Virus record (IMG/VR): IMGVR_UViG_3300044692_000050
Coordinates: 1 to 64,000 of that record
Reading direction: 5' to 3' (one strand)
Source of the DNA: a virus
Length of the DNA stretch: 64,000 bases
In this document: in pieces, positions 2,196 to 63,649 of the stretch
Layout: each line of letters starts with the position of its first letter
How positions within the stretch are numbered: the first letter of the stretch is position 1
Made by a program: the position numbers and the translations under genes
Notes under the pieces: model-generated
What the model was told of the DNA's origin: nothing
Databases searched by the model: none
The model's input: only the letters and a program-made list of their open reading frames with translations

Positions 2196-2795
2196 ATGGA
2201 CTCGACAGAAAGCGTCACCGTGGGCAAACGCCGGCTGGTGACGATGAATCAGATCGTCGCCTGGAACATGGCCTGGTACCGCCGCGAAGCAGGGATGACT
2301 CAGCAGCAGGTCGGCGACCACCTCGGATGGACCGCCCGCGCCGTATCCGAGGCCGAGCGGTCATGGGACAGCGGCAGGACGCGCGAATTCGACGCCCAGC
2401 TTCTGGCCGACCTCGCCGCGATCTTCGAGGTGCCCGTGATCGCGTTCTTCCTGCCGCCCGACGAGACCGACGGAGAGCTGCGCTACCCGTCGCCCGGGTC
2501 TGCCGGCGAACTGGACATGACGGATCTCATGTGGATCGTCATGCATGACAACGACAGCGAAGGCCCGGCGATGGAGGCGTTCCGCACCCGCATCCTCACC
2601 GCCGCCCGGGCCCGGCTGACGCCGGAGTGGGCGGAAGAAGTGGCCCGCTGGCTGAAGAAAGTCACCCCGGACTCCTTCATCGAGGACCAGGCCGCCATCT
2701 GGGAGTCCGAGGAGGCGTCCCTTGAGCGATCCCGAGACCGGGCCGGCCAGATGGCGCGAGCGCTCAGGGCCGTGCTGAAGGGCGAGCTGAAGTGA
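2196..2795 (+). CDS. XRE-family HTH regulator coupled to integrase
   Basis: YRREAGMTQQQVGDHLGWTARAVSEAERS HTH; GTGA overlap with int. Confidence 0.85.
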   Translation: MDSTESVTVGKRRLVTMNQIVAWNMAWYRREAGMTQQQVGDHLGWTARAVSEAERSWDSGRTREFDAQLLADLAAIFEVPVIAFFLPPDETDGELRYPSPGSAGELDMTDLMWIVMHDNDSEGPAMEAFRTRILTAARARLTPEWAEEVARWLKKVTPDSFIEDQAAIWESEEASLERSRDRAGQMARALRAVLKGELK

Positions 2796-4192
2796 AAGGC
2801 GACTCCATATACAAGCGGTGCAAGTGCAAGGATCCGGAGACCAAGAAGGAACTCGGCTCCGACTGCCCCGATCTGAAGCGCAAGGACGGGACGTGGAGTT
2901 CCAGGCACGGAACGTGGTACTTCTCGCTCGAGCTGCCGAAGGGTCCGGGTAATAAACGGCAGCCGAGGATGCGCCGCGGCGGGTTTGACAAGCGCGAGGA
3001 CGCCGAGGAGGCCCGCGAGAAGGCGCTGGCCGTCCTGCGCGAGGGCGTCGACCCGTCGAACCGGATGACGGTCGGCGCCTACCTGACCGAGTGGCTAGCC
3101 GGCCGCGTCAACCTGAAAGCAACCACGCGGCATAACTACGAGGCCAGCGTCAATACCTACCTGATCCCCCTGCTCGGCCACATCGAGCTCCAGCGGCTGA
3201 CGCCCCTGCACATCTCGCGCGCCTTCGCCACGATCCGCGAGTGGAACGACGACCTCGCCGCAGGGCGGCCGGTGCGGAAGTTCCAGCGCCACGTCGGCCC
3301 GGCCGCGATGCAGCGGATCCGCCACGTGCTGCGGTCCGCGCTCCGCGACGCCAAGCGCGCCCGGCTCGTCACGTACAACGCCGCCGAGGACGTGGACATG
3401 GAGCCGGAGCCGTCACGCAAGCCGGAGATCTGGACCGCCGAGCGGGTGCGGCAGTTCTGGCGCGACCACGAAGCCGCGCTCAAGCAGTCCCCGCTCACCC
3501 GCGGGGACCGGGCGTTCCTGGTGTGGCGGTCGCTCAAGCTGCGCCCGTTCCTGGTGATGATGTGGACGATCGAAGACCTCGGCGCGTTCCTGGACTACGC
3601 CGAGGGCAAGACGTTCGAGACCAGGACGCTGGCCGCGCTGTTCGAGCTCGCTGTCGCGACGGGAATGCGCCGCGGGGAACTGTGCGCGCTGCCATGGGCC
3701 AATGTCGACCTTGACAGGGGCGCGCTCTACGTCACCACGGCAGCGGTGCGGGCCGGCCGGCAGGTCATCCAGGGAGGACCGAAGACGGACAAGGGCCACC
3801 GCCGCGTCCCGCTCGCCGCGCAGGACGTGGCGCGGCTGAAGGCACACCGTGCCGCGCTGGCGAGGCAGCGGCTCGAGTACGGGCCCGGCTGGACGGAGAC
3901 AGACCTGGTGTTCACCCGGCTCGACGGCAAGCCGTGGCATCCTGACGCCATCACGAGTGCTTTCGAGCGGACGGCGTTTGCCGCGCACCTGCCGCCGGTC
4001 GGGTTCCACAGCCTGCGGCACGCGCACATCACCTACCTCTACGCGGCGAAGGTGGCCGAGCACGTGATCTCGGACCGGGTGGGCCACTCGGGCAAGAGGA
4101 TGACCCAGGCGTACGCCGCGGTGGCCGAGGAGATCTCGCACGAGGCGGCCGAGGCGGTCGCGGCGATGGTCCCGAGGCGGTCCGCGCGGTGA
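2792..4192 (+). CDS. int: Tyrosine integrase
   Basis: TGMRRGELCAL (R), PKT (K), HSLRH, RVGHS...TQAYA (H, Y); N-terminal arm-binding domain. Confidence 0.97.
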   Translation: MKGDSIYKRCKCKDPETKKELGSDCPDLKRKDGTWSSRHGTWYFSLELPKGPGNKRQPRMRRGGFDKREDAEEAREKALAVLREGVDPSNRMTVGAYLTEWLAGRVNLKATTRHNYEASVNTYLIPLLGHIELQRLTPLHISRAFATIREWNDDLAAGRPVRKFQRHVGPAAMQRIRHVLRSALRDAKRARLVTYNAAEDVDMEPEPSRKPEIWTAERVRQFWRDHEAALKQSPLTRGDRAFLVWRSLKLRPFLVMMWTIEDLGAFLDYAEGKTFETRTLAALFELAVATGMRRGELCALPWANVDLDRGALYVTTAAVRAGRQVIQGGPKTDKGHRRVPLAAQDVARLKAHRAALARQRLEYGPGWTETDLVFTRLDGKPWHPDAITSAFERTAFAAHLPPVGFHSLRHAHITYLYAAKVAEHVISDRVGHSGKRMTQAYAAVAEEISHEAAEAVAAMVPRRSAR

Positions 4193-5031: not shown

Positions 5032-5370
5032 ATGCCTCCGCCCCCGGACCCCGACCGTCTCCTCGTAGCCCAGATAACAGGTGAGGCCCTCCACCACGCC
5101 CGCCACGAACCCCCTGGAGACGCCGAACGACAGGCCGCGGTGACAGCCCTGCGCGAACTCGCCGGAGACCGCACGGACCTGCTCGCCGAAGTGGCGGGGA
5201 TCTTCGAGGGCGCGGGAGCGTCGGAACCGGATGCGGCACGCAGGCTCAACGCCGCGCGGCTGTGCCGGGATGCAGGTGCGGATGAAGCGCTGATCCCCGG
5301 CTGGGTGGAGGAAGGGAAACGCCGGGCTGAGCAAGCCAGGCAGCCGCCGTTCGGGGCGCGGGTGGTATAG
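5032..5370 (+). CDS. Hypothetical protein
   Basis: Helical, protein-like sequence; possible leaderless start. Confidence 0.6.
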   Translation: MPPPPDPDRLLVAQITGEALHHARHEPPGDAERQAAVTALRELAGDRTDLLAEVAGIFEGAGASEPDAARRLNAARLCRDAGADEALIPGWVEEGKRRAEQARQPPFGARVV

Positions 5371-5561
5371 CAGCGATGAAGATGGGGCCGGCGGGTGGTT
5401 TCCGAGTACCACATGTCCTTGCCGCTCTCGCCGGCCCCGTGGGTACCCGCGGCTCCGGTGCTGACTCTACCTGTCTCTACTGGCCTCTACCTGAAATGGA
5501 TAGGGGCGGGCGCTCACATCAGCACCCGGCCCCGGCCGGCCCCGAAAGGCCCCCAGGCCGA

Positions 5562-5933
5562 TCAGCATAGCCCGTGTACGGAGCAGCCGCCGCGATGTCC
5601 GCCGCGCTCAAGCAGTTCGGGCGGCCAGATGCACTTCGGTTCCGCGTGGAGCGCGGCCAGGTCCCCGAAGTCGTCGGCGTCCAGCCCTCCTTCCTCGGCG
5701 CGCAGGCAGGCGATGGCGTGTTCGAGCGTGCCGATGGCGTCCGCGTTGTCGATCACCTGGCTTAGCGCCTGCTGGATCAGGACTTGCGCCCGGTCGCTCC
5801 AGGCGCGGCACGTCACCAGAGCAGGGTCCTCGGTGATCCTGTCGGTACGGGGAAGCTCGAACGGGGTCATGCCGCAGCAGGGGGTGAGGCCGCCTCCGTC
5901 CGGCGGGCAGCGGTGGGTGATCTCGGTGCTCAC
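5562..5933 (-). CDS. Cys-rich hypothetical protein
   Basis: GTGA-coupled; HRCPP...TPCCG...VTC. Confidence 0.6.
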   Translation of the reverse strand: MSTEITHRCPPDGGGLTPCCGMTPFELPRTDRITEDPALVTCRAWSDRAQVLIQQALSQVIDNADAIGTLEHAIACLRAEEGGLDADDFGDLAALHAEPKCIWPPELLERGGHRGGCSVHGLC

Positions 5934-6139
5934 CGGGTAGTCCTCGCTTCCGTCATGTCGGGTGCCTCCGGCAGCAGGGTGACGCGCCCGCACCCGGAGC
6001 ACTCGATCGCCCAGCCCGGTTCGCCGATCTTGCCGTCCTGGCCGCGGGGTGCGGTGTACCAGCACACCCGGAACAGGGTCTCTGAGCAGGACCGGCAGGC
6101 GTACGTCCAGGCGGTGTTGGCCGGGGCCTCAGCGCTCAC
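5930..6139 (-). CDS. Zn-ribbon small protein
   Basis: CRSC...CSGC; GTGA-coupled. Confidence 0.55.
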   Translation of the reverse strand: MSAEAPANTAWTYACRSCSETLFRVCWYTAPRGQDGKIGEPGWAIECSGCGRVTLLPEAPDMTEARTTR

Positions 6140-24282: not shown

Positions 24283-25178
24283 CGCAGGCCGTCCCCGCTG
24301 AACCCTGCCGTCTTGGCCTGGATGGCCCTGCGGACAGCCTCGGCCTTCTCCGGGGCCATCGCGCCGGAGGCGGCCACCTCGTCAAGCTCGGCTTCGGCCC
24401 GCTGGCCGTCGTCGGCGCTCGCGATGCCGTCGATCCGGTCGGCCCAGTCGCCGAGGTCTGCGTCCGGTCCGTCCTCGGCACCCTCGTCCTGCGCGGCCGG
24501 GTCGTCGCTGCGCCCGATGACCTCGGCAACGGTTACCCTGCCGCTGCGCCGGGCCTGCGCGGGTGCCCCGCCAAGATCCTGCGGCAGCTCCTCCTCGATG
24601 TAGACGCCGCCGAGGTCATGCGGGAAGGCGCGGCGCAGCGCGAACGCCTCGGCGCACTTCTCGATCTGGTGCGCGGGCGCGTCCCGCCACTTCCCGGTGG
24701 GCGATCCGTTCTTGCTCTGCACGTACTCGCTAAACCGCAGGGTTCCGGGGTAGCGCCGGCCGTTCTTCAGGACGGTCACGGTGCATCCGGACGGCGGCTC
24801 GTTCTGGAGCCAGATCTTGTGCTCGCCGCCGCTGGCGTCGTACCAGATGGTGTCCTCATACTCGACCTCGATGCCGAGCCGCTCGGCGGCCCGGTCGCGG
24901 ATGACCCGGAAGCCCTCGATGCCGACCTGGATCGTCTGCTTGTCGATCCACTGGTCGCCGCGCCGTTCCTGGCGGCAGATCATGTAGATCTGCTTGGAGA
25001 ACGGGTCCAGCCCGGTCTTCTGGCAGTAGTGCATGAACACGGCCAGGTCGGCGCTGGAAGCGTTCTTGATGCCGAGCGCGGTCAGCGCAGCCCGCTGCTT
25101 GGGCGTCCACATCTCCTGGCCGGGACGGATGGCCAGGGCGGCGGTCGGCTGGTAGGTGTCGATCGCGGTGACGGTCAT
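24279..25178 (-). CDS. recT: RecT/Bet-family single-strand annealing protein
   Basis: FMHYCQKTGLDPFSKQIY, IQVGIEGFR, W...P..QIEKCAEAFALRRAFP. Confidence 0.9.
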   Translation of the reverse strand: MTVTAIDTYQPTAALAIRPGQEMWTPKQRAALTALGIKNASSADLAVFMHYCQKTGLDPFSKQIYMICRQERRGDQWIDKQTIQVGIEGFRVIRDRAAERLGIEVEYEDTIWYDASGGEHKIWLQNEPPSGCTVTVLKNGRRYPGTLRFSEYVQSKNGSPTGKWRDAPAHQIEKCAEAFALRRAFPHDLGGVYIEEELPQDLGGAPAQARRSGRVTVAEVIGRSDDPAAQDEGAEDGPDADLGDWADRIDGIASADDGQRAEAELDEVAASGAMAPEKAEAVRRAIQAKTAGFSGDGLR

Positions 25179-26047
25179 TCGAAGTCCTCCCCCGTGCGCT
25201 GCGCCCACGGCGGCAGCGAGATGTACGTGATGTCGTTGTCCGAGTAGCCGGGCCAGTAGCCGGCGGCGGTGCAGTCGCGGAAGATCTCGGCGGCGGTGCG
25301 CATCCGGTCGCGCCCGGCCTCGATCGCGCCGTCCTCCAGGCCGATGACGTTGACCAGGTAGGGCGCGGCCTTCTCTTGCACGATGAACAGGAACGCCGGG
25401 TCGTCGTCGAGCCCGAGGGCGCGCACGCCGTCGATGTACTGGGCGGCCTGCATGTGGTAGCTGAACTTGGCGGCGGCCCTGCGGAAGCTCTCCGCGTCGG
25501 CCGCCACAGCGGTCTTGTAGTCGGGGATCACGAGGCGGCGGCCCGGCGAGACGTCGGGCAGGAAGTCCAGCCGCGCCCGCCGCCAGATGCCGGTCTCGTC
25601 GTCCTCCCAGAACAGGGACTGCTCGGGCTTGCCGTGCTCCCGGTCGAGCAGCACGGACGCCACGGGGTGCTTGCGGAGGGTGTCCGCCATCGCGACGATC
25701 ACCAGCCACTCGTGCGGCAGGACCGGGACGTAGCCGTTCTCGCGCGCCTCGGCCGCGGCGTCCTTTGCCTTCTTGGTGCGCCAGTCGGGCGCGTCCACGA
25801 CGGTGACGTCAGGCCCGGATCCGAGGACCATGCGGTGCGCGGCGGTGCCGAACTCGAAGCTGTCCTTCGGCGGCGGCGGGTTCTGGCGCTCGTGCCAGAA
25901 CCGGGCCGGGCATGACGGCGGCAGCAGGAGCTTCGCGCCGGACGCCGACAGCGAGCCGCCCGGAACCGGGTCGCCGTGGTACTCGTCCTCCGGCATCCCG
26001 TCGCGGACGCCAGCGGTGAAGGCGGGAGCCTCGGCTAGCGCCGTCAT
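25175..26047 (-). CDS. recE: RecE-like PD-(D/E)XK exonuclease (DUF3799-like)
   Basis: YHGDP...LSASGAK, FGTAAH, EQS..W, RARLD, DYKT and YHMQAAQY motifs. Confidence 0.9.
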   Translation of the reverse strand: MTALAEAPAFTAGVRDGMPEDEYHGDPVPGGSLSASGAKLLLPPSCPARFWHERQNPPPPKDSFEFGTAAHRMVLGSGPDVTVVDAPDWRTKKAKDAAAEARENGYVPVLPHEWLVIVAMADTLRKHPVASVLLDREHGKPEQSLFWEDDETGIWRRARLDFLPDVSPGRRLVIPDYKTAVAADAESFRRAAAKFSYHMQAAQYIDGVRALGLDDDPAFLFIVQEKAAPYLVNVIGLEDGAIEAGRDRMRTAAEIFRDCTAAGYWPGYSDNDITYISLPPWAQRTGEDFE

Positions 26048-26274
26048 GCCGCCACCCTTCCCTGCTGGCCGCTGGCCTCGATCAGTCGTGCGTGCGCCGC
26101 CCTGATCGCCTCCACGTCCGGTGCTGTCCACTGCTCGCCCCGGTACGTGTCGGTGTGGTCCCTGATGAGGTCCCACACGCCGGACCGGGCGGCGTTCAGT
26201 TCCGGCGTCCAGGACAGTCCCCCGGTCTCCCGGTAGGTCGCGTGGGCGGTGAGGACGGCCTGAGCGGCGGTCAT
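26044..26274 (-). CDS. Hypothetical protein
   Basis: Coupled ORF. Confidence 0.55.
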   Translation of the reverse strand: MTAAQAVLTAHATYRETGGLSWTPELNAARSGVWDLIRDHTDTYRGEQWTAPDVEAIRAAHARLIEASGQQGRVAA

Positions 26275-26759
26275 GACGCCGCTCCGGCAAGGCGGTATTT
26301 CCTGGCCATGTCCCGCATCGCGGCGAGGATGACCTCTTCCTCTTCCGGGCTGCTGCCGAGGATGGCGGCAACGTTGGCGAACCCGTCGCCGATCCGCGCG
26401 TACGTCTTGGCCCCGGCTATGTCGTTACGCGGGTTCGCCCACGCCCAGAACGCGTGGTGGCTGGCATCCAGCTCGGCCCACACGTCCATGTACTGCTGGT
26501 ACGGGTCGGTGTCCGGGGCGGGCTTACCCGGCTCCGGGGCGGGTTCCGCGACGGCCGGAGACGCGGCCTTGGCGACGCACACGTTGCACGTCCACTGCTC
26601 GCCCGCGTGCATCCAGCCCGCACCGAGGGCGGCGGGGCGCATCGACTCGGCCATCACCCTGGACACGGCCTCGGTCCCGGCGGCGAACAGGGCACCGCAC
26701 GGGCTGCACTGGATCTGCCGTGAGGTCACGGCCGGGAAGGCCGTGGTGTCGTCGCTCAT
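26271..26759 (-). CDS. Hypothetical Zn-binding protein
   Basis: CSPC...GW...CNVC. Confidence 0.6.
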   Translation of the reverse strand: MSDDTTAFPAVTSRQIQCSPCGALFAAGTEAVSRVMAESMRPAALGAGWMHAGEQWTCNVCVAKAASPAVAEPAPEPGKPAPDTDPYQQYMDVWAELDASHHAFWAWANPRNDIAGAKTYARIGDGFANVAAILGSSPEEEEVILAAMRDMARKYRLAGAAS

Positions 26760-33675: not shown

Positions 33676-34878
33676 TCAGGTCAGCCCGACGGCTGATTTC
33701 AGCGCCCGCACCTCATCCGTAGGCCGGGTGGCGCCTCGTACCGCGGCACGGGCCAGGTCCCGGAACGGGCCTTGGCTTCGCGCCCACTCAGCTGACACGG
33801 AGTGCGCCTCCAGGAGCGCGAGCACGGCCGACCTCGGGCGCCCCCGGCCCCGGCCCATGTCCATGTACGCCCGCGCCACGTCGAGATGCAGCGCCCCCCA
33901 GGATATGCCGAGGAGATCGGCCCGGCTGACCCGCTGCGCGGCCTTCACGGCCTCCTGGGAGCGTCCCAGCACCGTGTCCGTGTGCGCCCGCTGCATATTC
34001 ACCTGGCTGGGTCCGTGGCTGACGTTGTAGTCGTGCCGGTCCCCCTCGGTGTACTGCAGGGCCGTGACCGACGCCTCGGCCAGGTAGTCCCGCACCGCGT
34101 CCGCGCGCCCCGCTGCGGCGGCCGGGGCGGCGGCGGACATCAGGAGCGCGCCGTGGACGGTGAGATGCTCCATGGACACCCGGCCCGGCGGGCGGATCGC
34201 GTCGGCCATCTGCGCGGCCACCCGCTCGGCCTTGTCCAGCCTGCCCTGGTGAAGCAGGATCCAGCTGAGCGTGCCGGCGAGGGTGGCGTGCTGCAGCGGG
34301 TCGTCGCACTCGTAGGCGACCGTGATGGCCCGCCGCGCCGCGGCGAACGCGAGATCGTCGTTACCGACGTGGACCAGGACGTCCGCGGCGAGCTGCAGCG
34401 CCTGGGCGAGCGGCTTGCGCGCCGCCGCGCCATCCTCCCGGACGGCTGCGCGCCCGGCGCTGATGACCGGCGGGAGCAGCGTGGCCAGCAGCCCGAACCG
34501 GCCCGACCAGTACAGCCCCCACCCGAACTCCACGTCCCGCTCAAGCTGGCTCACGGGCGCCGGGATAGCCTCGTCTTCGCCGAGGTCCATGCCGGGGATG
34601 TCGCCGACGGACAGCAGGGCATCCCGCAGAGCCAGGATGCCGTGGTCCCGGTCGCTGCGGTCGAGCCGCTCCCCCCGGTCCAGGAGCCGGCCCGGCTCGA
34701 CGGTGAGCGCGGCGGCGATCCGCATGATGAGCTGGCAGCCGGGCAGCCGCTCCCCCCGCTCGATCTGGGAGATGTACCCGGCGCTGGTGCCCGCCGCGTG
34801 GGCGAGGGCTTCCTGGCTCATGCCGCGCTCGCGGCGCAGCTCGCCTATGCGATCACCGACGGACAGCGTAGAATCCAT
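33676..34878 (-). CDS. XRE HTH regulator with long helical (TPR-like) C-terminus
   Basis: IGELRRERGMSQEALAHAAGTSAGYISQIERGER; ~400 aa actinomycete type; GAAGGAGG RBS. Confidence 0.9.
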   Translation of the reverse strand: MDSTLSVGDRIGELRRERGMSQEALAHAAGTSAGYISQIERGERLPGCQLIMRIAAALTVEPGRLLDRGERLDRSDRDHGILALRDALLSVGDIPGMDLGEDEAIPAPVSQLERDVEFGWGLYWSGRFGLLATLLPPVISAGRAAVREDGAAARKPLAQALQLAADVLVHVGNDDLAFAAARRAITVAYECDDPLQHATLAGTLSWILLHQGRLDKAERVAAQMADAIRPPGRVSMEHLTVHGALLMSAAAPAAAAGRADAVRDYLAEASVTALQYTEGDRHDYNVSHGPSQVNMQRAHTDTVLGRSQEAVKAAQRVSRADLLGISWGALHLDVARAYMDMGRGRGRPRSAVLALLEAHSVSAEWARSQGPFRDLARAAVRGATRPTDEVRALKSAVGLT

Positions 34879-35258
34879 GATCAAGGCCTCCTTCTCCTGC
34901 GGATCTCGACAATCTCAGGATAGGGAGGCCTCGGCATTTCCGCACGTCGCAGAACGAATCAAGAATGCACGTATGTACACTAAGCGATGCTTTGCGCGTT
35001 TGGCGTTATTAATTCGGCCGCCGTTTACCCGTGCGCTGCATCGTGCGCGAGAGGCATCTCCGGCGTGGCCTGCGCCTCGCCTGCGGGGTCGGGGATCTCC
35101 GGGGCCCGCGGGTTCAGGAACCTGCCATCGCCGGCGCAGGTGCACACCCTGAGCACGTCCCGCTTCGGCACGTCACCCGACCTCGCGGGACAGGTGAGGT
35201 CATGCAACGGGCGCCAGGTATCTGCCATGCCACGCACGGTAAGGCCGGGCGCCGACAT

Positions 35259-36701: not shown

Positions 36702-37769
36702 TCAGGGGCGGTCATGCTGGCCCCCGTACTTCCCAACGTGCCGCAGGGCCTCTGTCGCGCAGCGCCGGGCATCGCGGTGCACCTCGCTTCCGCCGAACCT
36801 GACAATGCGCCATCCGGACTCTTCGAGTAGGCGCTGGCGCTGCCGGTCCCTGGCGATATCCGTCGGGCTGGAATGCGTAGCATGCCCGTCGATCTCAAAC
36901 CCGACCTTGACGCCGGGACCGACTCTCTCCGTCAATGCGAAGTCCAGGAAGAAGTTCCTTCCCTTGACAGTGACCGGGAACTGCGGCGCGAGGATGGCGG
37001 CCAGATCGGGCGGCCACACGTCCTTGCATGCCCGCAAGAACATCTGCTCGACAGGAGAGCCGAGGGCAGGGCCGGCCGCCGTGACGGAGAACAGGGTCAG
37101 GCGGAAGGCTCCCTTGTGGCTGGCCGACAGGAGCGCGAGGCGCGTGCCGCAGGCGCAGACCATCGTGATGACGTTGTAGCCCCCGCAGGTCTCCAGGGGA
37201 TTGCTGGGTTCGTAGCGCCTTTGATCCGGATGAGCGAAGACGTTCGCGCCGACGCCGCCCGCGATTGAGCTGTCACCGCAGCGCGGGCAGAGCAGGTCCC
37301 CATCTGGAGAGAACCTGAGAGGCCGCTTCGCCCATACCCAGGAACCCGGCTCCCCTTCCGGTGGCCCCCAGGCCGCGGGCCATGCGGGGAAGTCCGGGTG
37401 TAGCCGGTACGACTTTCCGTTGCCGACCGCGGGCGTTTCCTCGGCAGGGTCCCCGTCGGCCACCTCATCGGCGTACCGTCCATCGCGAAGCCAGCTCGAC
37501 GCATGGGGGATGTACTTGGTTTCGGTGCCGTTCTCACGGCATTTGACAGCGAACCGCCTGGCCGCGTCGATGATCTCGTCGGAGTTGCCGCTCTTGCGGG
37601 TCACCCGCTGCCACAGCCTCTGCGCGCCCGCCTTGCCGATCTTGCGCGGGTAGGCAGCCCAGAACTCATCGAACTTCGGGTCGGGCGTCGTGCGGCGACG
37701 TCGCCCTGCCGACGCCTCGACGGGGATCACGCTGAGCCCGTAGTTGGGATCACTCTCGCTGGGGGTCAT
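36702..37769 (-). CDS. Fusion: replication-protein C-terminal domain + Zn ribbon + DUF559 endonuclease
   Basis: FDEFWAAYPRKIGK...IPHASSWLRDGRY; CPRC; SPVE...LDFA..GFEIDGH..H...DRQRQR.L...GWRIVRFGGSEV. Confidence 0.82.
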   Translation of the reverse strand: MTPSESDPNYGLSVIPVEASAGRRRRTTPDPKFDEFWAAYPRKIGKAGAQRLWQRVTRKSGNSDEIIDAARRFAVKCRENGTETKYIPHASSWLRDGRYADEVADGDPAEETPAVGNGKSYRLHPDFPAWPAAWGPPEGEPGSWVWAKRPLRFSPDGDLLCPRCGDSSIAGGVGANVFAHPDQRRYEPSNPLETCGGYNVITMVCACGTRLALLSASHKGAFRLTLFSVTAAGPALGSPVEQMFLRACKDVWPPDLAAILAPQFPVTVKGRNFFLDFALTERVGPGVKVGFEIDGHATHSSPTDIARDRQRQRLLEESGWRIVRFGGSEVHRDARRCATEALRHVGKYGGQHDRP

Positions 37770-43176: not shown

Positions 43177-45594
43177 GTGAGCGAGCAGGAACGCCCGGAC
43201 GTGCCGGACTGGGCAGAAGCCGGGGAAGATGAGGCGCTTGAGGGTGTCGTCGTCCCGCTGCGCCCCGGCGCGCCCGAGCACGCTCTCGCCCCGTCGCCAC
43301 GCCACTCCGCACCCGGCCAGCCAGGCGAGCTCCGGCAGATCATCCCCGGCCAGTTCCGCTCCTGGGACGCGTTCCGCAAGCACTACGGCTGGCACCTGCA
43401 CCGCGCCGGGCATCACGCCGCCTACCACCTGTTCCCGTCACGGGCGATAACCCGGCTCGTCAACACCCTGCGGTATGCGGCAGTCGGCATCGGGAAGTTG
43501 CTGGTCGCGCTGATCGCCTGGTGGCACGTCGCCGAGCAGGCCTACCTGCGCAACGAGGCGGTCGCCGCGAACGACCCCCGGACTTACCTGCAACTGCAGA
43601 AAAACGGCAAGGAATCCCGCCTGACCCGCGGACTGGTCCTGCTCGCCTGCCTCGCCGCCGCGGTCCTCGCCGGCGCGCTGATCACCGTTCACGTCCCGCT
43701 GGCGTGGATCCCGATCGGCTGCGTCGCCGTCCCGCTGCTGGCCTGGGCCGGGCGTCCCGCCGACAAGCCCATCCTCGACTCTGCTGTCACCCCGGTCCAC
43801 CTCGAGCCGCTGTCCCGCGAGGTAATCGTCCGTGCACTGAGCACCCTGGGCATCGGCGAGCTCACCAAGGCCATCGGCAGGGATCCCGAGCGCGCCGTGG
43901 TCCTAGTCGACCCGATCGTCCGCGACGGGCCCGGCTGGCTGGCCCGCCTCGACCTGCCGCACGGCGTCACCGCGTCGGCGGTCATGGACAAGCGCGAAGA
44001 ACTCGCCTCCGGGCTGCGCCGCTCCATCGGCTGCGTGTGGCCCGAGAACGAGCGCAGGCGCCACCCCGGCGCCCTGAGCCTGTACGTGAGCCACGAGGAC
44101 ATGTCGCAGGCCTCTCAGCCGTCCTGGCCGCTGGCCAGGCGCGGCGCGGTGGACATGTTCCGGCCGGTCCAGTTCGCCACCGACCAGCGCGGCAAGCCGA
44201 TCACGATCACGCTCATGTTCGTGTCCATCATCATCGGGAGCGTCCCGAGGATGGGCAAGACGTTCCTGCTGCGCCTGCTGCTGCTGATCGCCGCCCTCGA
44301 TGTCCGCGCCGAGCTCCACGTCTACGACTTCAAGGGGACTGGTGACCTGGCAGCCCTGCGCGCGGTGGCGCACCGTTACCGGGTCGGCGACGACGAGGAC
44401 GACATCGAGTACTTCGTCGCCGACATGCGCGCCCTGCGCGAGGAGCTGCGGCGGCGGACCAAGGTGATCCGCGAGATCGCCGAGAAGCAGCCGGCGCTGT
44501 GCCCGGAGAACAAGGTGACCCCGGAACTGGCCAGCCGTAAGGATCTCGGCCTGCACCCCATCGTGATCGCCGCCGACGAGTGCCAGGTGCCGTTCACGCA
44601 CCCCGGTTACGGCAAGGAACTGGTGGAGATCGCCACCGACCTCGCCAAGCGCGGCCCGGCTCTGGGCATGATCGAGGAACTGGCGACCCAGCGCCCGGAC
44701 GCCAAGGCCATCCCGCGTGACATCAGCGCCAACGCCGTCCTGCGGATGTGCCTGAAGGTCATGGGTCACATCGAGAACGACATGATCCTCGGCCAGTCGG
44801 CACACAAGAACGGCTACAAGGCCACCATGTTCGACTTCGATGACAAGGGCATCTTCTACTTCTCCGGCGAGGGCAGCGCGCCGCGGATCTGCCGCAGCTT
44901 CGAGATCGACGGCCCGGCCGCCACGAAGATCGCCGCCCGCGCCCGCGCCATGCGGGAGCAGGCCGGCCGGCTGACCGGCTACGCGCTCGGCCAGGATCAG
45001 GCCGAAGAGGTCCGCTCGTTCCTCGCTGACGTGCTGGACGTGTTCGGCGCTGACGCCAAGCTGTGGCTGACGACGATCGCCGACCGGCTGCACGGCCACG
45101 TCTCGGGCGCCTACCCGGACATCACCCCGGAGGCGGTGGCGAGCCAGCTCCGCGCCCTGAACGTGACCGTGAAGGACGTGCGGGAGCCGGGCCAGGCGGT
45201 GCGCAAGGGCTGCGAGTGTACGGGCGTGCTCGCGGCGATGGGTGATGCGGTCCCGTCCGACCCGCCGCCTGCGCCCCGCCCGGTGCCGCAGCGAGCGCGC
45301 GCCGATGCCGTGCCGGATCCCGAAGCGCCCGCGCCGGCGGATGACTGGCCGCACGACTTCCAGGATCTGCTCCTCCATGCCGCCGAGCTCATCATCACCA
45401 CCCAGCACGGCTCAAAGCAGATGCTGCAGCGCAAGCTCCGGGTCGGGTTCGACCTCGTGGCCCGGATCATGGCCGAGCTCCAGGCCGCGAGGATCGTCGG
45501 ACCGGAGAACGGCACGCCGGCGCGGGATGTCCTGAAGCGTCCGGAGGAGCTTGAGGTGACTCTTGAGATGTTGCGGGGAGCGGTCCATGCCTAG
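43177..45594 (+). CDS. traB: FtsK/SpoIIIE-family DNA translocase, TraB-like, with extra FtsK-gamma domain
   Basis: N-terminal TMs; Walker A [9 protein letters not shown]; Walker B IAADECQ; ATQRPD; TraB-type wHTH, then [14 protein letters not shown]...IVGP gamma domain. Confidence 0.9.
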   Translation: [805 protein letters not shown]

Positions 45595-45610
45595 CCTCGT
45601 CCCCGTTTTG

Positions 45611-45733
45611 TGTCGCGGGACCGCAACAGCCCTGCTACCTGCAGAAATGCTGATCTGCGCGACGGTGCGCAACGCCCCTCCGCACAGACGGGCCGCCCTG
45701 ACCTGCGTTGTCGCGGAGCCTGGCGCCGCAACA
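45611..45733. repeat. clt-like 8-bp repeat cluster directly downstream of traB
   Basis: (C/G)CGC(A/G)AC(A/G) at 45621, 45657, 45667, 45726 and inverted TGTCGCGG at 45611 and 45709. Confidence 0.65.
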
Positions 45734-45773
45734 CGGAAGCCCCTCCCGGCCGCCTACATGGGGGTCTCGACCG

Positions 45774-46181
45774 ATGGCGCTGATGCCGCGGCTACACATC
45801 ACCTGCTCCCGGTGCGGCAAGCCCCGCGAAGGCATCGTCCACGTCTGCCGGTCGAACTCCAAGCGCAAGGCCACCGTCAAGCCGGTCATCTCGTTCGGCA
45901 AGTGCTCGTGCGGGAAGCCGATCGGGAACCCGCTGACTCACGTCTGCCGCAAGAAGTCCGACTTCAAGCGCCGCAAGTCCAAGGCCGAGAAGGCTGCCAG
46001 GGCCGCGGCACGCAAGAAGCGGCAGGCCGAGAAGCACGACTACCAGGCCTGCGCGGACAAGGACTGCAAGAAGTCGCTGTGCGTGGCCTACAAGACGGGC
46101 CGCAAAGACGGCTACGACGAGGGGTTCGAGGAAGGCTACGGGGCTGGGTTCGCCGCGGGCTCGGCGTCCGGTGCCGCGTGA
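45774..46181 (+). CDS. Basic multi-Zn-finger protein
   Basis: CSRCGK..HVC; CSCGK..HVC; H...C...C...C. Confidence 0.7.
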   Translation: MALMPRLHITCSRCGKPREGIVHVCRSNSKRKATVKPVISFGKCSCGKPIGNPLTHVCRKKSDFKRRKSKAEKAARAAARKKRQAEKHDYQACADKDCKKSLCVAYKTGRKDGYDEGFEEGYGAGFAAGSASGAA

Positions 46182-46191
46182 GGAGGCTGCC

Positions 46192-46437
46192 GTGCTGAAC
46201 CTGATCTTGTTCCTGCTCGCCGTCGTCGTCGTTTACGGCCTGTTCGTGCTGGTCAAGGCGGACAGGCAGTGCGGAACGTGCGGCGGCTGGGGCAACCGGA
46301 AGAAGCGCCGCCGCAACAAAGCCTGCTCCCGGTGCCACGGCACGGGACGCACGTTCTGGCCTGGCGCTCGGCTCGTCCACAAGGGCGCGGCGCTCGGATT
46401 GCGGCAGTTGCGCGAGCGATCGGAGCGTGAGTCATGA
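46192..46437 (+). CDS. Membrane-anchored DnaJ-type Zn-finger small protein
   Basis: TM plus CGTCGGWG...CSRCHGTG; typical neighbour of AICE traB. Confidence 0.7.
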   Translation: MLNLILFLLAVVVVYGLFVLVKADRQCGTCGGWGNRKKRRRNKACSRCHGTGRTFWPGARLVHKGAALGLRQLRERSERES

Positions 46438-55277: not shown

Positions 55278-56267
55278 ATGATCGATCGTACATGCCCGCA
55301 TTGCGGCAACCCAGTGACGCGTGGCCCGCTGGCGGTTTACTGCTCTCCGCAGTGCAAATATGCGGCAGCCCATGACCGGGCCGACCTGAACGGGAGCGCG
55401 CGAGCCCGAGAGGCGGCACGGCAGGCGCGCAAGGCTGCCGAGCGGGATGCGAATCGCAAGCCGTGCCCGTATTGCGGCACATCGATGGACGGCTGGCGCA
55501 TGCAGTGCGGTGCCGCCGAGTGTAAGCGGCGGCTCGTCAGCGAGCGCAACGCGGCCCGGCAGCGCGAGTACCGTGAGCGCACAGGGAAGTGGCCGAGCCA
55601 GCGTTACCGCACTCCCCGCGAGCACGTCTGTGAGGCGTGCGGCGAGCCGTTCACTTCGCCGGACAAGGCGACCCGGTTCTGCTCGGGCGCGTGCGCGAAC
55701 AGCGTGCGGCGGTGGACGCGGACGTGCGGCATGTGCGGCGGTCAGTGGGAGGCGAAGGCCCCGACGGACCTGTTCTGTTCAGCGACCTGCCGCGAGGTGG
55801 CCGGCCGAGCGCACCGGGCGCAGGTCATGGTCCGGCCGGGGTTCCGTGAGCGCCGCTGGATGGCGCTGGCAGTTGTCCGGTCGCTGCGGAAGCGCTGGTA
55901 TGCGGGTCAGTGCGTGCGGTGCGGCGAGTGGTTCGTTCACGATCAGCCGCACACCAGGACATGCTCACGGCGATGCGCGGGGAAGCTCTCGAAGGCGCGG
56001 CGCCGGGCTGTCGAGCTGGAGGCGTTCGTTGAGGACGTGGCCCGCTGGAAGATCTTTGAGCGGGACGGATGGCGTTGCCAGTTGTGCCGTAAGCCAGTCG
56101 CGCGCACCAAAAGCGTGCCACACCCGAAGGCACCTGTGCTCGACCACATCATCCCGCTGGCTGCTGGCGGGACGCATGAGCCGTCCAACGTCCAGTGCGC
56201 CCACTTCCTGTGCAACTGCCTGAAAGGCGACCGGGGCGGCGGCGAGCAGTTGCTGCTGATCGGCTGA
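55278..56267 (+). CDS. HNH endonuclease with multiple CxxC/CSxxC Zn fingers (homing-like)
   Basis: Repeated C..CG..F...FCS..C; IFERDGWRCQLC...LDHIIPL..GG.H..SNVQCAHFLCN. Confidence 0.88.
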   Translation: MIDRTCPHCGNPVTRGPLAVYCSPQCKYAAAHDRADLNGSARAREAARQARKAAERDANRKPCPYCGTSMDGWRMQCGAAECKRRLVSERNAARQREYRERTGKWPSQRYRTPREHVCEACGEPFTSPDKATRFCSGACANSVRRWTRTCGMCGGQWEAKAPTDLFCSATCREVAGRAHRAQVMVRPGFRERRWMALAVVRSLRKRWYAGQCVRCGEWFVHDQPHTRTCSRRCAGKLSKARRRAVELEAFVEDVARWKIFERDGWRCQLCRKPVARTKSVPHPKAPVLDHIIPLAAGGTHEPSNVQCAHFLCNCLKGDRGGGEQLLLIG

Positions 56268-56544: not shown

Positions 56545-56982
56545 ATGGGAGTTAAAGGGGCGGTCCCGAAGCGGACCGACCAGCTGCACGGCCACCGGAA
56601 GCCCCCGGCGACAGATAAGGCCCCGACTCCGCCCGGGGCGGCGTCGTACCGGCGCCCGGCGGCTGACAGCACGTGGCATCCGCTGGCGAAACGCTGGTGG
56701 AACGCCCTGAGCAAGTCGGGGCAGTCCACGTGGTACCAGCCGTCTGACTGGGAGCACGCCTACATCTGGGCGGAGATGCTGTCGCGGCAGCTGTTCTCAG
56801 CCAAGCCGTCTTCGATGATGCTGGCAGCATGGGATGCGGCATCGGTCCGGCTGCTGGTGACCGAGGGAGACCGTCGCAGGATGCGCATCGAGCTCGACAA
56901 GGGCGGCGAGGTCGATGCGGATAAGGAAGCCGCTGTAGCGAGCATGCAGGCGTGGCGTGCCAACCGCGCTAGCGGTTCCTGA
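56545..56982 (+). CDS. terS: Terminase small subunit
   Basis: GAVPKR...WHPLAKRWW..L..SGQ...YQPSDW...LLVTEGDRRRMRIEL; precedes terL. Confidence 0.85.
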   Translation: MGVKGAVPKRTDQLHGHRKPPATDKAPTPPGAASYRRPAADSTWHPLAKRWWNALSKSGQSTWYQPSDWEHAYIWAEMLSRQLFSAKPSSMMLAAWDAASVRLLVTEGDRRRMRIELDKGGEVDADKEAAVASMQAWRANRASGS

Positions 56983-58705
56983 CCGCCGCCTTCCTGCGCC
57001 GGCTGACCGGCTGATCACGCTCCCCGCGGGCGAACCTGAGCTGACGCTCGGCTGGCATGCGATCGTGTGGGCCGGGACGTACCTGAAGCACCCGAACGGG
57101 ATCCGGGCGGGGCTGCCGTGGAAGTACACCGACAGCCAGCGCGCTTTCGTTCTGTGGTGGTACGCGATCCACCCGGACGGCCGGTGGGTCTACCAGCACG
57201 GAGTGCGCCGCCGCAGCAAGGGCACTGGCAAGAGCCCGGGTGCGGCGACTCTGTCGCTGACGGAGCTGCTGGCGCCTGTCCGGTTCGCGGGGCTGGCCGA
57301 TACGGACGTGCCGTACCTGGAGGGGAACGGCAGGAACGGCCTCCCCGCCGGGTGGGTGCAGATCGGCCGGGTGATCGGCAAGCCGGTGGCGATGCCGCTA
57401 GTGCAGATCGCGGGTGTGTCCGAGGCCGCGACGGCGAACACGATGCGTCACGTCCGGGCGATGACGGCGAAGAACTCCAAGGTCGTCCAGGCGTACCACC
57501 TTGATCCGGGCAAGACGGTGATCTACACGCCGTCAGGCGGCCAGCTCGAGGTGATCACGTCGTCGGCGGCTTCGGCTGAGGGGGCCGAGGTGACCGCGGC
57601 GTTCCTCGACGAGCCGGAGCACTGGACGCCCGCGTCAGGCGGGGTTGAGCTCGCCGCGACGATCGACCGCAACCTGGCCAAGTCGGGGTCCCGGGCGATC
57701 GAGACGGCGAACGCGTGGGAGCCGGGCGCGGGGTCGGTGGCTGAGGCGACGTTCGAGGCGTGGTGCGCGCAGGAAGAAGGCCGCACGAAGTCAGGCGCGC
57801 TGATCCTGTACGACGCCGTGGTCGCGCCCCCGGACACGGACCTGGCCGACGAGGAGTCGCTGCGCAAGGGGATCGCGTTCGCCTATGACGACTCGGACTG
57901 GGTTGACCAGCAGGTCATCATGGACCGCATCCTGTCGCTGCGGACCAAGCCGGACGAGGCGCGGCGGTTCTACCTCAACCAGCCGGTGGCCAGCGCCGAT
58001 TCGTGGGTGACGCCGCAGGAATGGGCGGTCCTCGCCGATCCGACACAGGTCATCTGCGATGGCGATGAGATCGTAGCGTTCTTCGACGGCTCATCCAGCC
58101 GGGACGCGACGGCCTTGATTGCCTGCCATGTCGAGACGGGCTATGTGTTCACGGTCGACATATGGGAGCCGGAGCCGGGCCCGTCGCATTCTCCGGGAGC
58201 GGCCCGCATCCCGGTCGCCGAGGTCGACGCTGCGGTTGAGCGGATGTTCGACCGGTGGCAGGTCTGCGCGTTCTTCGCTGACGTGAAGGAATGGGAGTCC
58301 TTCGTCAAGGTGACCTGGCCGGAGCGGTACGCGGAGCAGCTAGAGCTCCACTCGGTGCCGTCGGGCAAGGACCCGCAGGCCATCGCCTGGGACATGCGGA
58401 CGCACACCTACGAATTCACGCTGGCCGCCGAGCTCACCTTGACGGAGATCACGGGCGACACCGGGCCCGCGTTCCGTCATGACGGGGATTCGCGGCTAGG
58501 TCGGCATGTGGTCAACGCCCGGCGGCATCCGAATCGGTGGGGCGTCTCGATCGCCAAGGAATCGAAGGATTCGCCAAAGAAGATCGACGCGGCTGTCTGC
58601 ATGATCGGGGCGCGGCTAGCACGCAGGCTGCTGCTGGCCGAGCGCGCTAAGCAGCAGCAGAAGGCGAAGAAGCCCAGGTCAGGTAGGGTTCACGGCTTCG
58701 CTTAG
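56957..58705 (+). CDS. terL: Terminase large subunit
   Basis: Walker A RRSKGTGKS; LDEPEHW; RRFYLNQ; FFDGS...DATAL; KKIDAAV. Confidence 0.95.
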   Translation: MPTALAVPDRRLPAPADRLITLPAGEPELTLGWHAIVWAGTYLKHPNGIRAGLPWKYTDSQRAFVLWWYAIHPDGRWVYQHGVRRRSKGTGKSPGAATLSLTELLAPVRFAGLADTDVPYLEGNGRNGLPAGWVQIGRVIGKPVAMPLVQIAGVSEAATANTMRHVRAMTAKNSKVVQAYHLDPGKTVIYTPSGGQLEVITSSAASAEGAEVTAAFLDEPEHWTPASGGVELAATIDRNLAKSGSRAIETANAWEPGAGSVAEATFEAWCAQEEGRTKSGALILYDAVVAPPDTDLADEESLRKGIAFAYDDSDWVDQQVIMDRILSLRTKPDEARRFYLNQPVASADSWVTPQEWAVLADPTQVICDGDEIVAFFDGSSSRDATALIACHVETGYVFTVDIWEPEPGPSHSPGAARIPVAEVDAAVERMFDRWQVCAFFADVKEWESFVKVTWPERYAEQLELHSVPSGKDPQAIAWDMRTHTYEFTLAAELTLTEITGDTGPAFRHDGDSRLGRHVVNARRHPNRWGVSIAKESKDSPKKIDAAVCMIGARLARRLLLAERAKQQQKAKKPRSGRVHGFA

Positions 58706-61149: not shown

Positions 61150-62007
61150 ATGGGGCAGCCCACGCCGCCACCCAGCACGCCGCAGCCGGTAGTGACGGGC
61201 GGCGCGATCGTCGCCGGCGGTTCCCTGGCTCTCACAACGTCGGCCACCCTGGCCGCTCAGGCCGCCCTGGCGGCGTCCTTCTACCAGTCCCAGGCGTTCC
61301 TCGCCGCGATGGCCACGAGGGACATCCTGACCGTCTGGCGGCAACTGAACCTGCGTGACGTCCGGTCGTCGTGGCCCGCGCTGCGCACCGCCCTGGCCGC
61401 GCTGATCCGTGACCGGTACTCGCAGGCGTCGGCGCTCGGGCAGGCGTACTACGGGCAGGCGAGGCAGGCCGCGGGGGTTCCGGGCGAGCCGCCGAGGGTG
61501 CATGTCCCGCCGCCGCCCGAGCCGCAGATCACAGCCACCCTGGACTCAACGGGCCCGTGGAACCTGCTCGGGAAAATCAAGCAGGGCCAGCAGCTAGCCA
61601 CGGCGAACGAGAACACGGCGGTACAGCTGGCCGGGTCGGCGCAGCGGCTGATCACGAACGGTGCCCGTCAGGCGGTCATGCGATCGGTGGCGGCCGATGA
61701 CAAGGCCGTGGCCTGGGCTCGTGTCACGTCGGCGAACCCGTGCGCGTTCTGTGCCCTTCTGGCAGGGCGCGGCGCTGTGTACAGGTCGGAGAAATCAGCC
61801 AGTTTCGACGCCCACAACCACGACCAGTGTGTAGCCATGCCCCTGTTCTCGCATGAAGAGGCGCAGGCCACCAAGGACAACCCGCTGTATGACCAGTGGA
61901 AGCGGGTCACCAAGGGTCATGGCGGCGCTGAGGCACTGAAGGTGTGGCGGCGTCACTGGGACGCGCAGCAGAACCGCGACGGCGTGAAGGTTCTGCCAGC
62001 CGCCTAG
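61150..62007 (+). CDS. Head maturation / MuF-like protein
   Basis: WARVT...PCAFC.LLAGRG.VY...AHNHDQC; between portal and scaffold. Confidence 0.85.
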   Translation: MGQPTPPPSTPQPVVTGGAIVAGGSLALTTSATLAAQAALAASFYQSQAFLAAMATRDILTVWRQLNLRDVRSSWPALRTALAALIRDRYSQASALGQAYYGQARQAAGVPGEPPRVHVPPPPEPQITATLDSTGPWNLLGKIKQGQQLATANENTAVQLAGSAQRLITNGARQAVMRSVAADDKAVAWARVTSANPCAFCALLAGRGAVYRSEKSASFDAHNHDQCVAMPLFSHEEAQATKDNPLYDQWKRVTKGHGGAEALKVWRRHWDAQQNRDGVKVLPAA

Positions 62008-62947: not shown

Positions 62948-63649
62948 ATGTCAGAAGACGCCGCGGGAGCACAGGACGCCGGAACGGCCCCTGAGACCGC
63001 ACAGCAGACCCAGCAGGACGGCAACCCGCTGTTCCGCACCACGGAGACCGTTAAGGGCCGCACGGGGGCGCAGAACGGCGCTCAGGGCGACGACAAGGAC
63101 GCGGCGGCCGTGCTCGCCGACGCCACGGCCGACGGCCAGGACGAGGATCCGCTCGCCAAGGCCCAGGCCGAGATCGCCCGGTGGAAGCAGCAGGCCCGCG
63201 AGAACGAGCGCCGCGCCAAGGCCAACGCCGACAAGGCCAAGCAGTTCGACGCGTACGAAGAGAGCCAGAAGACCGAGCAGCAGAAGCTCGCCGACCAGCT
63301 CGCCGCCGCCCAGGAAGAGGCGCGCAAGGAGCGGGGCTCGAGGCTCAGGCTGCTCGCCGCCGCCCAGTACGACCTCGACCCGAGTCTTATCGACTACCTC
63401 GGCGACGGCGACGAAGACGCCATCAACGAGCGTGCCGAGGCATTCGCGCGGGCCATCAACGAGAAGGCCGCCGTCCTCGCCGCCGCTCAGGTCCAGGCCG
63501 CCCAGCAGGCCGCCGCGGCACAACAGCAGCCCCGCGCCAACGGCTTCGGCCGGCCCGTAGAGGCCCTCCGCCCCGGCGCCCTGCCCGCCACGGACAACCG
63601 CACCAACGACCCCAACGCCTGGATCCGCCAGGCCCTCGGCCGCAAGTAA
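62948..63649 (+). CDS. Scaffolding protein
   Basis: Acidic N-terminus, WK..AR.NE.RAK.N, KTEQQK coiled coil; precedes capsid. Confidence 0.88.
   Translation: MSEDAAGAQDAGTAPETAQQTQQDGNPLFRTTETVKGRTGAQNGAQGDDKDAAAVLADATADGQDEDPLAKAQAEIARWKQQARENERRAKANADKAKQFDAYEESQKTEQQKLADQLAAAQEEARKERGSRLRLLAAAQYDLDPSLIDYLGDGDEDAINERAEAFARAINEKAAVLAAAQVQAAQQAAAAQQQPRANGFGRPVEALRPGALPATDNRTNDPNAWIRQALGRK

Follow-up and report, generated by a model that had tools for sequence, protein, structure and literature searches.

The stretch of DNA analysed here, referred to below as the window, is the leading 64 kb of the 102,340-base IMG/VR virus record IMGVR_UViG_3300044692_000050, whose completeness is estimated at 98%. 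On its plus strand lies a stop-free open reading frame (ORF) with a third-codon-position G+C content (GC3) of 0.91, which encodes a protein of 805 residues, here called P0001. The protein is a probably membrane-anchored translocase of double-stranded DNA (dsDNA) of the TraB type, and it ends in a gamma domain that derives from the chromosomal FtsK of actinobacteria. Between the motor and the gamma domain are another winged helix and a linker, an arrangement unlike the layout of chromosomal FtsK and SpoIIIE, in which gamma immediately follows the alpha–beta motor; positions 45016–45560 correspond to residues 614–794 in this part of the chain. A literature search found no description of a TraB protein combined with an FtsK gamma domain. 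The features of the gene and its surroundings are collected in Table 1.

Table 1. The translocase gene, its parts and other features of the window (aa, residues of P0001)
Feature	Position	Strand	Basis or remark
TraB-type dsDNA translocase gene (P0001), stop codon included	43177–45594	+	Open frame; BLASTP and hhalign to pSVH1 TraB; 3049 homologs
Two hydrophobic segments, aa 153–171 and 175–192, putative membrane anchor	43633–43752	+	Read from the sequence by eye
Walker A, GSVPRMGKT, aa 354–362	44236–44262	+	Sequence; aligned with GEPGAGKS of pSVH1 TraB
Walker B region, IVIAADECQ, aa 462–470	44560–44586	+	Aligned with LLLWVDEL of TraB
The family's own winged helix, aa ~612–690	45010–45246	+	Position of the wHTH of TraB that reads TRS/clt
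Pro/Ala-rich linker, aa ~691–724, ~35 residues	45247–45348	+	pLDDT <60 in model
FtsK gamma winged-helix domain, aa ~725–788	45349–45540	+	Pfam PF09397; structure superposition; identity to chromosomal FtsK
Extra C-terminal helix after gamma, aa 789–805	45541–45591	+	pLDDT ~95 (H200–215 of model)
clt-like cluster of 8-mer CCGCAACA and near-inverse TGTCGCGG	45569–45733	none	
Repeat copies in the cluster	45569–76 (−), 45611–18, 45621–28, 45709–16, 45726–33		
Further exact CCGCAACA copy	46311–46318	+	
Cys-rich ORF, 157 aa, directly downstream of the translocase gene	45708–46181	+	Syntenic with the translocase by tblastn
Tyrosine integrase	2792–4192		
RecE-like exonuclease	25175–26371		PHROGs
Repressor-like regulator	33676–34884		PHROGs
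HTH_31/DUF5753 regulator	39639–40478		Gene type of actinomycete transfer modules
DUF6919 gene	41852–42709		Gene type of actinomycete transfer modules
DUF2637/Spd-like gene, weak match	47135–48238		Gene type of actinomycete transfer modules
HNH endonuclease	55278–56267		PHROGs
Large terminase	56957–58705		PHROGs
Head protease	61150–62007		PHROGs
Scaffold	62948–63649		PHROGs

The TraB-type motor

The reference protein is TraB of the Streptomyces venezuelae plasmid pSVH1 (L001:1568–3886), which has been characterised. BLASTP aligns residues 231–627 of P0001 with it at 29% identity (E 6e-34), and comparison of the family profile of P0001 with pSVH1 TraB using hhalign gives a probability of 100%. 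The Walker A and Walker B motifs are intact, and the Pfam family FtsK_SpoIIIE matches the motor with 18.8 bits, under its cut-off of 24. The hydrophobic stretches that form the putative membrane anchor (residues 153–192) stand N-terminal to the motor; the chromosomal FtsK families FtsK_4TM (PF13491) and FtsK_alpha (PF17854) were not found in P0001 by Pfam. A tblastn search with P0001 matched 92 plasmid records, mostly from Streptomyces and with pSVH1 among them, and in none of the 92 does the match reach beyond residue 678.

In several TraB-like relatives (P0032, P0351, P0306 and the protein encoded at L108:4551–8870), the motor holds intein/HINT-like insertions, as judged from protein lengths of 1015–1439 residues, Pfam PT-HINT/Intein_splicing matches and a match divided into two stretches.

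The FtsK gamma domain

The C-terminal segment had been assigned to the FtsK gamma family in a sequence-only reading of this DNA, and it is a true member of that family. Pfam FtsK_gamma (PF09397) matches residues 730–786 with 51.8 bits (cut-off 30.6; E 6.8e-14), and with 56.9 bits in a six-frame search, while the PDB sequence matches of the segment are the FtsK gamma entries 2J5O, 2VE8 and 2J5P. The domain is predicted with confidence in the AlphaFold2 (AF2) model, where its predicted local distance difference test score (pLDDT) is ~95. The model aligns with the Pseudomonas aeruginosa domain (2VE8_A) over 66 residues with a Z-score of 10.5 and with the gamma part of the XerD–gamma fusion 5DCF with a Z-score of 8.9; Foldseek superposes it on 2J5P, 2VE8 and 2VE9 with root-mean-square deviations (rmsd) of 0.8–1.5 Å and target TM-scores (TMt) of 0.72–0.89. 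The fold is thus that of the chromosomal gamma domains of Escherichia coli (2J5P) and P. aeruginosa (2VE8/2VE9), the rmsd being about 1–2.4 Å.

The origin of the domain is equally clear. The nearest relatives of residues 715–805, at 52–59% identity, are chromosomal FtsKs, from Trebonia, Streptosporangiaceae and Actinomyces, all of which contain FtsK_4TM and FtsK_alpha, and FtsK_SpoIIIE too. The actinobacterial gamma consensus quoted in the sequence-only reading agrees with the one that we computed from 119 chromosomal FtsKs. The extra helix that follows the domain and completes the protein, in which L792, L799 and R800 are conserved, is of the chromosomal FtsK type as well, because the chromosomal proteins cover 97% of the segment 715–805.

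The first winged helix and the linker

Ahead of the gamma domain, residues ~612–690 stand where TraB has the winged helix–turn–helix domain (wHTH) that reads the TraB recognition sequence (TRS) of the transfer locus clt. An AF2 model of residues 590–805, built from 58 sequences, gives this segment the order helix–strand–helix–helix–strand–strand plus a further helix with pLDDT >90, and a second model of residues 605–700, built from 94 more diverse sequences, has the identical topology with a mean pLDDT of 83.9. All PDB neighbours of the domain are winged-helix proteins (PadR, MarR, Rex, forkhead, LOTUS, TubR and cullin WHB), yet they score only moderately (best Z 6.2; Foldseek E ≥0.02), and the models therefore support the winged-helix fold class without pointing to any specific structural relative. 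FtsK gamma is absent from the top 50 structural neighbours, though a distant kinship of the two domains may exist.

The link to TraB comes from the alignments. Those obtained with BLASTP and hhalign extend from the motor into helix 1 (FLADVLDVF in P0001, LLAAVLEVF in pSVH1 TraB), and in the last 75 residues of TraB we recognise by eye a short strand, helix 2, helix 3 (S/T-V/I-T-x-E) and a basic wing, in the same order as in P0001. The helix 3 motif, DIT..AVASQLR, is almost invariant in both the long, gamma-bearing forms and the short, gamma-less forms of the family, and it is through helix 3 of its C-terminal wHTH that TraB binds its 8-bp repeats (PMC10191066, PMC12857230). The earlier proposal of a TraB-type wHTH in the middle segment is upheld by the topology of two independent models. 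So is the statement that proteins of this type normally possess one such domain: the pSVH1 protein has no FtsK_gamma match in Pfam, the plasmid matches end by residue 678, and no gamma lies within 10 kb in any of 101 related loci.

The Pro-rich connection that had been noted between the two domains is present, as a Pro/Ala-rich segment at residues ~690–726. It is predicted to be disordered, and its length and sequence differ among homologs.

Distribution and evolution of the gamma add-on

Among the best 120 of 3049 homologs, 29 are ~800 residues long and have both PF09397 and the gamma tail, the others stopping at ~685 residues, right after the first winged helix, and a scan of metagenomes yielded 14 loci spanning both winged-helix domains. 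This recurrence shows that the double architecture did not arise from misassembly. Conservation of gamma in homologs, which the sequence-only reading took as a touchstone, accordingly holds for a subset of the family. In 101 related loci (21 from IMG/VR and 80 from species-representative genomes) no gamma was found within 10 kb, and there was likewise no separate gamma gene within 10 kb of the gamma-less relatives in these loci.

In a wider sample, 8 of 150 representatives at 50% identity (drawn from 5547 hits) carry gamma. In four of the eight it is C-terminal; in the other four it falls among the first 100 residues and precedes the membrane segments. Pfam confirms the N-terminal domain in P0326 (51 bits), P0388 (37 bits) and P0345 (31.5 bits); the match in P0306, at 25 bits, is under the cut-off. 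These N-terminal-gamma relatives also keep their own C-terminal winged helix.

A maximum-likelihood tree was calculated from the N-terminal-plus-motor core of 27 gamma-bearing and 28 gamma-less proteins. The presence and absence of gamma on this tree call for at least six changes, all forced by well-supported branches, with one gamma clade of 16 members, one of six, and singletons within gamma-less clades. The domain is thus an optional accessory module on a disordered linker that has been repeatedly gained, lost or swapped. Overall, we conclude that the gamma add-on is genuine and evolutionarily labile, with conservation in some parts of the family.

Searched on its own, the gamma part of P0001 also has matches among GenBank phages and in PHROGs 6152, 13700, 6576 and 36563; the proteins concerned, from phages of Gordonia and Mycobacterium, are small or unrelated and are variously annotated as FtsK-like, EccC-like, RusA or sliding clamp. 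Shuffling of gamma seems to be widespread among actinophages.

Recognition residues of the gamma domain

The 29 TraB-borne copies were compared with the gammas of the 119 chromosomal actinobacterial FtsKs. Identity over the core is 97% among the chromosomal domains, whereas the TraB-borne copies average 67% to one another and 69% to the chromosomal set; P0001, 62% identical to the chromosomal consensus, is among the more divergent C-terminal copies, which range from 56 to 80%. Across the 29 copies there are 24 invariant columns and the hydrophobic core is intact. The differences between the two sets cluster in helix 3, on its exposed face, and at the tip of the wing.

These are the surfaces of interest. 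In E. coli FtsK, mutation of R1300, E1303 or E1306 makes the protein blind to the FtsK orienting polar sequences (KOPS) (PMC2680272). At the position of R1300, where Arg is invariant in the 119 chromosomal proteins, P0001 has R763, and the TraB-borne copies divide into 15 Arg, 6 Asp, 4 Glu, 3 Gln and 1 Gly. The invariant chromosomal Asp at the position of E1303 is replaced by A766 in P0001 (24 Asp, 4 Ala and 1 Glu in the TraB-borne set), and the invariant Glu at E1306 by Q769 (11 Glu, 10 Ala, 3 Gln and 5 others). P0001 therefore retains one of the three E. coli recognition positions and is without the KOPS-type set of residues. At the start of helix 3, the Lys that is invariant in chromosomal proteins (E. 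coli R1297) is L760 in P0001; Leu or Glu is present in 26 of the 29 copies and Lys in one, and one relative, P0087, retains the chromosomal Ala–Lys pair. Taken together, the chromosomal invariants A759, K760, D766 and E769 and the wing sequence SEGSK have become D, L, A, Q and ENGTP.

The charge of the domain has been retained in P0001. Over the core from helix 2 to the wing, the net charge is +5.9 in chromosomal FtsK and +5 in P0001, with basic residues kept at R752, K753, R755, R763 and R783. Among the TraB-borne gammas, conservation is highest in the block RKLRVGF, equivalent to the first seven positions of a nine-residue peptide of E. coli gamma, RQFRIGYNR (1289–1297), which suffices for XerD activation and lies on the surface that also binds KOPS (PMC5052618). 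The full equivalent of this peptide in P0001 is RKLRVGFDL.

Repeats near the 3′ end of the gene

A clt-like cluster of 8-bp repeats surrounds the stop codon. The word CCGCAACA occurs six times in the 64-kb window against 2.29 copies expected, and four of the six fall within 45569–46318, a span of 750 bp in which ~0.03 would be expected. TGTCGCGG is the inverse of CCGCAACA with one mismatch, and the two words form imperfect palindromes, TGTCGCGG-N2-CCGCAACA at 45611–45628 and TGTCGCGG-N9-CCGCAACA at 45709–45733. These palindromes are intergenic, downstream of the translocase gene, and could serve as operators in addition to being clt repeats. The general form of the repeat is sCGnnACA; we take the TRS of pSVH1 to be GACCCGGA, and the repeat of P0001 is CCGCAACA-like instead.

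Similar words (GCGGAACA, CGCGACAC, CCGCTACA, CGGAACG and CCGCAAC) are found in three to eight copies at that location in relatives, in gamma-less elements (L003–L006, L026, L029, L031, L032 and L087) as well as in gamma-bearing ones (L104, L105, L107, L108, L112 and L113). Since elements with gamma and elements lacking it share their motif classes, the wHTH common to both is the most probable reader of the repeats. The word GCAGACG was considered as a motif specific to gamma, being present in 8 of 12 long-form and 7 of 63 short-form loci, but it coincides with Cys codons in the ORF downstream, which confounds the comparison, and it was rejected.

Polar words of the KOPS kind were sought in the whole 102-kb record, and none of the 2825 8-mers tested was significant. 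The most skewed candidate, CCGTGGTC, has 14 copies on the plus strand and none on the minus strand (p 1.2e-4), which is not significant after correction for the 2825 words. Its copies stand on both sides of the gene-orientation switch in the record.

Genomic setting

The translocase gene belongs to a module like those of the integrative and conjugative elements of actinomycetes (AICEs), consisting of the genes for the DUF6919 protein, the TraB-type translocase, the Cys-rich protein and the DUF2637/Spd-like protein, and this module separates the early from the late genes in the record, which is that of a temperate tailed phage. The metagenome contigs that bear gamma, none longer than 14 kb, show the same module, with DUF6919, HTH_31/DUF5753, the Cys-rich ORF, DUF2637 and a NUDIX gene. 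By tblastn, the Cys-rich ORF, to which no family is assigned, was matched in 12 of the 14 gamma-bearing loci and in 55 other loci. Of the five nearest IMG/VR records that contain a gamma-less relative, four (those behind L003, L004, L005 and L007) encode a large terminase too, and TraB-like pumps in tailed-phage genomes seem to be recurrent.

Just left of the module in the window, at 36702–37769 on the minus strand, is a gene for a 355-residue protein with a C-terminal MTES_1575/DUF559 endonuclease-like domain. At L113 the NUDIX gene (5269–6018) stands upstream of the gamma-bearing translocase; it is reminiscent of the gene for Pif, the transfer-immunity protein of pSAM2-type AICEs.

Comparison with known DNA pumps

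P0001 resembles the Tra/TraB proteins of pSVH1, pIJ101, pSG5 and AICEs of the pSAM2 type in being an FtsK-like dsDNA pump of the kind that forms hexamers and, probably, in being associated with the membrane (PMC10191066, PMC12857230). The likeness extends to the winged helix at the equal position after the motor, to the clustering of 8-bp repeats (clt) at or after the 3′ end of the gene, and to the neighbours, Spd-like here and NUDIX in relatives. The differences from pSVH1 TraB are the low identity, the genuine FtsK_gamma domain added after a linker, and the location of the gene in a tailed-phage record rather than in a plasmid or AICE. With the gammas of actinobacterial FtsKs, P0001 shares sequence as well as fold, the terminal helix included; it departs from chromosomal FtsK in bearing gamma on a TraB-type motor behind a second winged helix and with substitutions at the KOPS-recognition and wing positions. 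SpoIIIE of Bacillus subtilis is a membrane DNA pump acting between compartments, in which gamma reads 8-bp polar repeats, the SpoIIIE recognition sequences (SRS). It has one reader, whereas P0001 has two candidate readers, and no polar motif was detected in the 102-kb record.

Possible roles of the gamma domain

The reading that we favour, tentatively and at slightly less than even chances, is that gamma is an accessory module on a flexible tether that lets the P0001 pump contact DNA at a second point, with diverged specificity. The wHTH would read the 8-bp repeats of the CCGCAACA type, as in pSVH1 TraB, and gamma, on its tether, would make a further contact of diverged or relaxed specificity, which is suggested because the domain stays strongly basic and keeps basic residues. 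Gamma could in this way help the hexamer to capture or load on DNA beside the interaction of the wHTH with clt. The domain most likely does not read the polarity motif of the host, because helix 3 and the wing tip have departed from the invariant chromosomal pattern.

Several points weigh against a second DNA contact. The net charge averages only +2.3 in the C-terminal TraB gammas and −0.2 in the N-terminal ones, and the function common to all TraB-borne gammas may not be DNA binding, because many copies have Asp or Glu at the position of E. coli R1300 together with a low net charge. Comparison of k-mers downstream of long-form and short-form genes revealed no second motif specific to the gamma-bearing elements. 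Helix 3 of the wHTH is almost invariant while the repeats differ between elements, and for that reason the covariation of repeat variant with helix 3 is uninformative. Lastly, a role on DNA and a role in protein contacts cannot be told apart by sequence alone, because the surface of E. coli gamma that binds KOPS also activates XerD (PMC5052618). The fallback offered in the sequence-only reading, that the altered helix confers a new DNA specificity, is compatible with the divergence of helix 3 and the wing; a role in protein contacts is compatible as well.

Such a role, in which gamma activates or recruits a tyrosine recombinase, either XerC/D of the host or the integrase of the element, and so couples pumping to resolution, excision or integration, is the main rival and seems to us unlikely. 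Several points speak for it. The block equivalent to the start of the XerD-activating peptide is the best conserved part of the TraB-borne gammas, while DNA-facing positions vary and many members have lost part of the positive charge; fusions at both termini suit a tethered interaction module; and the record itself encodes a tyrosine integrase. Mobile elements with Xer activators of their own are known, as exemplified by XafT of the Vibrio satellite phage TLC-phi, which substitutes for the Xer-activating function of FtsK gamma (PMC6744903); unlike P0001, XafT has no homology to FtsK_gamma and is not fused to a translocase. However, the peptide ends in two residues other than the host-type Ala–Lys, and the conserved block also contacts the DNA backbone in the gamma fold. 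No dif-like core (ATAAT-N6-ATTAT, at most one mismatch) was found in the record, a result that carries little weight given the provisional consensus. A broader version, in which the gamma captured repeatedly, at either terminus or internally, by conjugative TraB-type pumps of actinomycete mobile elements and phages serves not for reading DNA but for engaging the host partners of chromosomal FtsK gamma, Xer-type recombinases or FtsK itself, and so couples transfer to site-specific recombination or septal positioning in the recipient, is distinctly unlikely.

The interpretation put forward in the sequence-only reading was that a hybrid translocase could read both the clt of its element and the polarity motifs of the host, for example to mobilise the chromosome. 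Its first part, two winged-helix domains of different origin, stands. That gamma reads a KOPS-like motif, with the pump also loading on and mobilising the chromosome, we regard as very unlikely. The descent of the domain from chromosomal gamma, at 52–59% identity, would accommodate it, as would the Arg kept at the R1300 position, the net charge of P0001, the chromosomal Ala–Lys at the start of helix 3 in P0087, and the known mobilisation of chromosomes by TraB via clt-like sites (PMC12857230, PMC3429521). The residues speak otherwise, with R, A and Q in place of the invariant R, D and E: positions invariant in the 119 chromosomal FtsKs are changed in P0001 and variable in its relatives, KOPS reading in E. 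coli requires both E1303 and E1306 (PMC2680272), and no significantly polar 8-mer was detected in the record. It is highly improbable, finally, that gamma is a near-neutral passenger, a shuffled domain of the mobilome fused by recombination and heading for loss. A patchy distribution with at least six changes on the tree, the absence of gamma from all 101 reference-genome and viral-contig loci, its frequency on unrelated actinophage proteins and the comparatively high divergence of the P0001 copy are what a passenger would show. Against this stand the invariant columns and intact core across 29 copies averaging 67% identity, the retention of gamma throughout the 16-member clade, the recurrence of fusion at both termini, the confidently predicted fold and the lack of frameshifts or stops.

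Implications for TraB-type transfer

To our knowledge, TraB is the sole protein needed for the transfer of dsDNA between Streptomyces-type hyphae. Its choice and orientation of DNA are known from one winged helix and the 8-bp repeats that this domain reads. The proteins described here form a recurrent subfamily which adds to such a pump, several times over and at either end of the chain, the reading head of the chromosomal pump. They amount to a natural experiment on the addressing of pumps, in that each element has close gamma-less relatives with which it can be paired. If gamma adds a second DNA specificity, as we favour, it would bear on which DNA, that of the element, the phage or the chromosome, moves in soil actinomycetes; if it contacts recombinases instead, transfer would be linked to integration. 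A further question, raised by the phage setting, is whether prophages can spread in a manner resembling conjugation.

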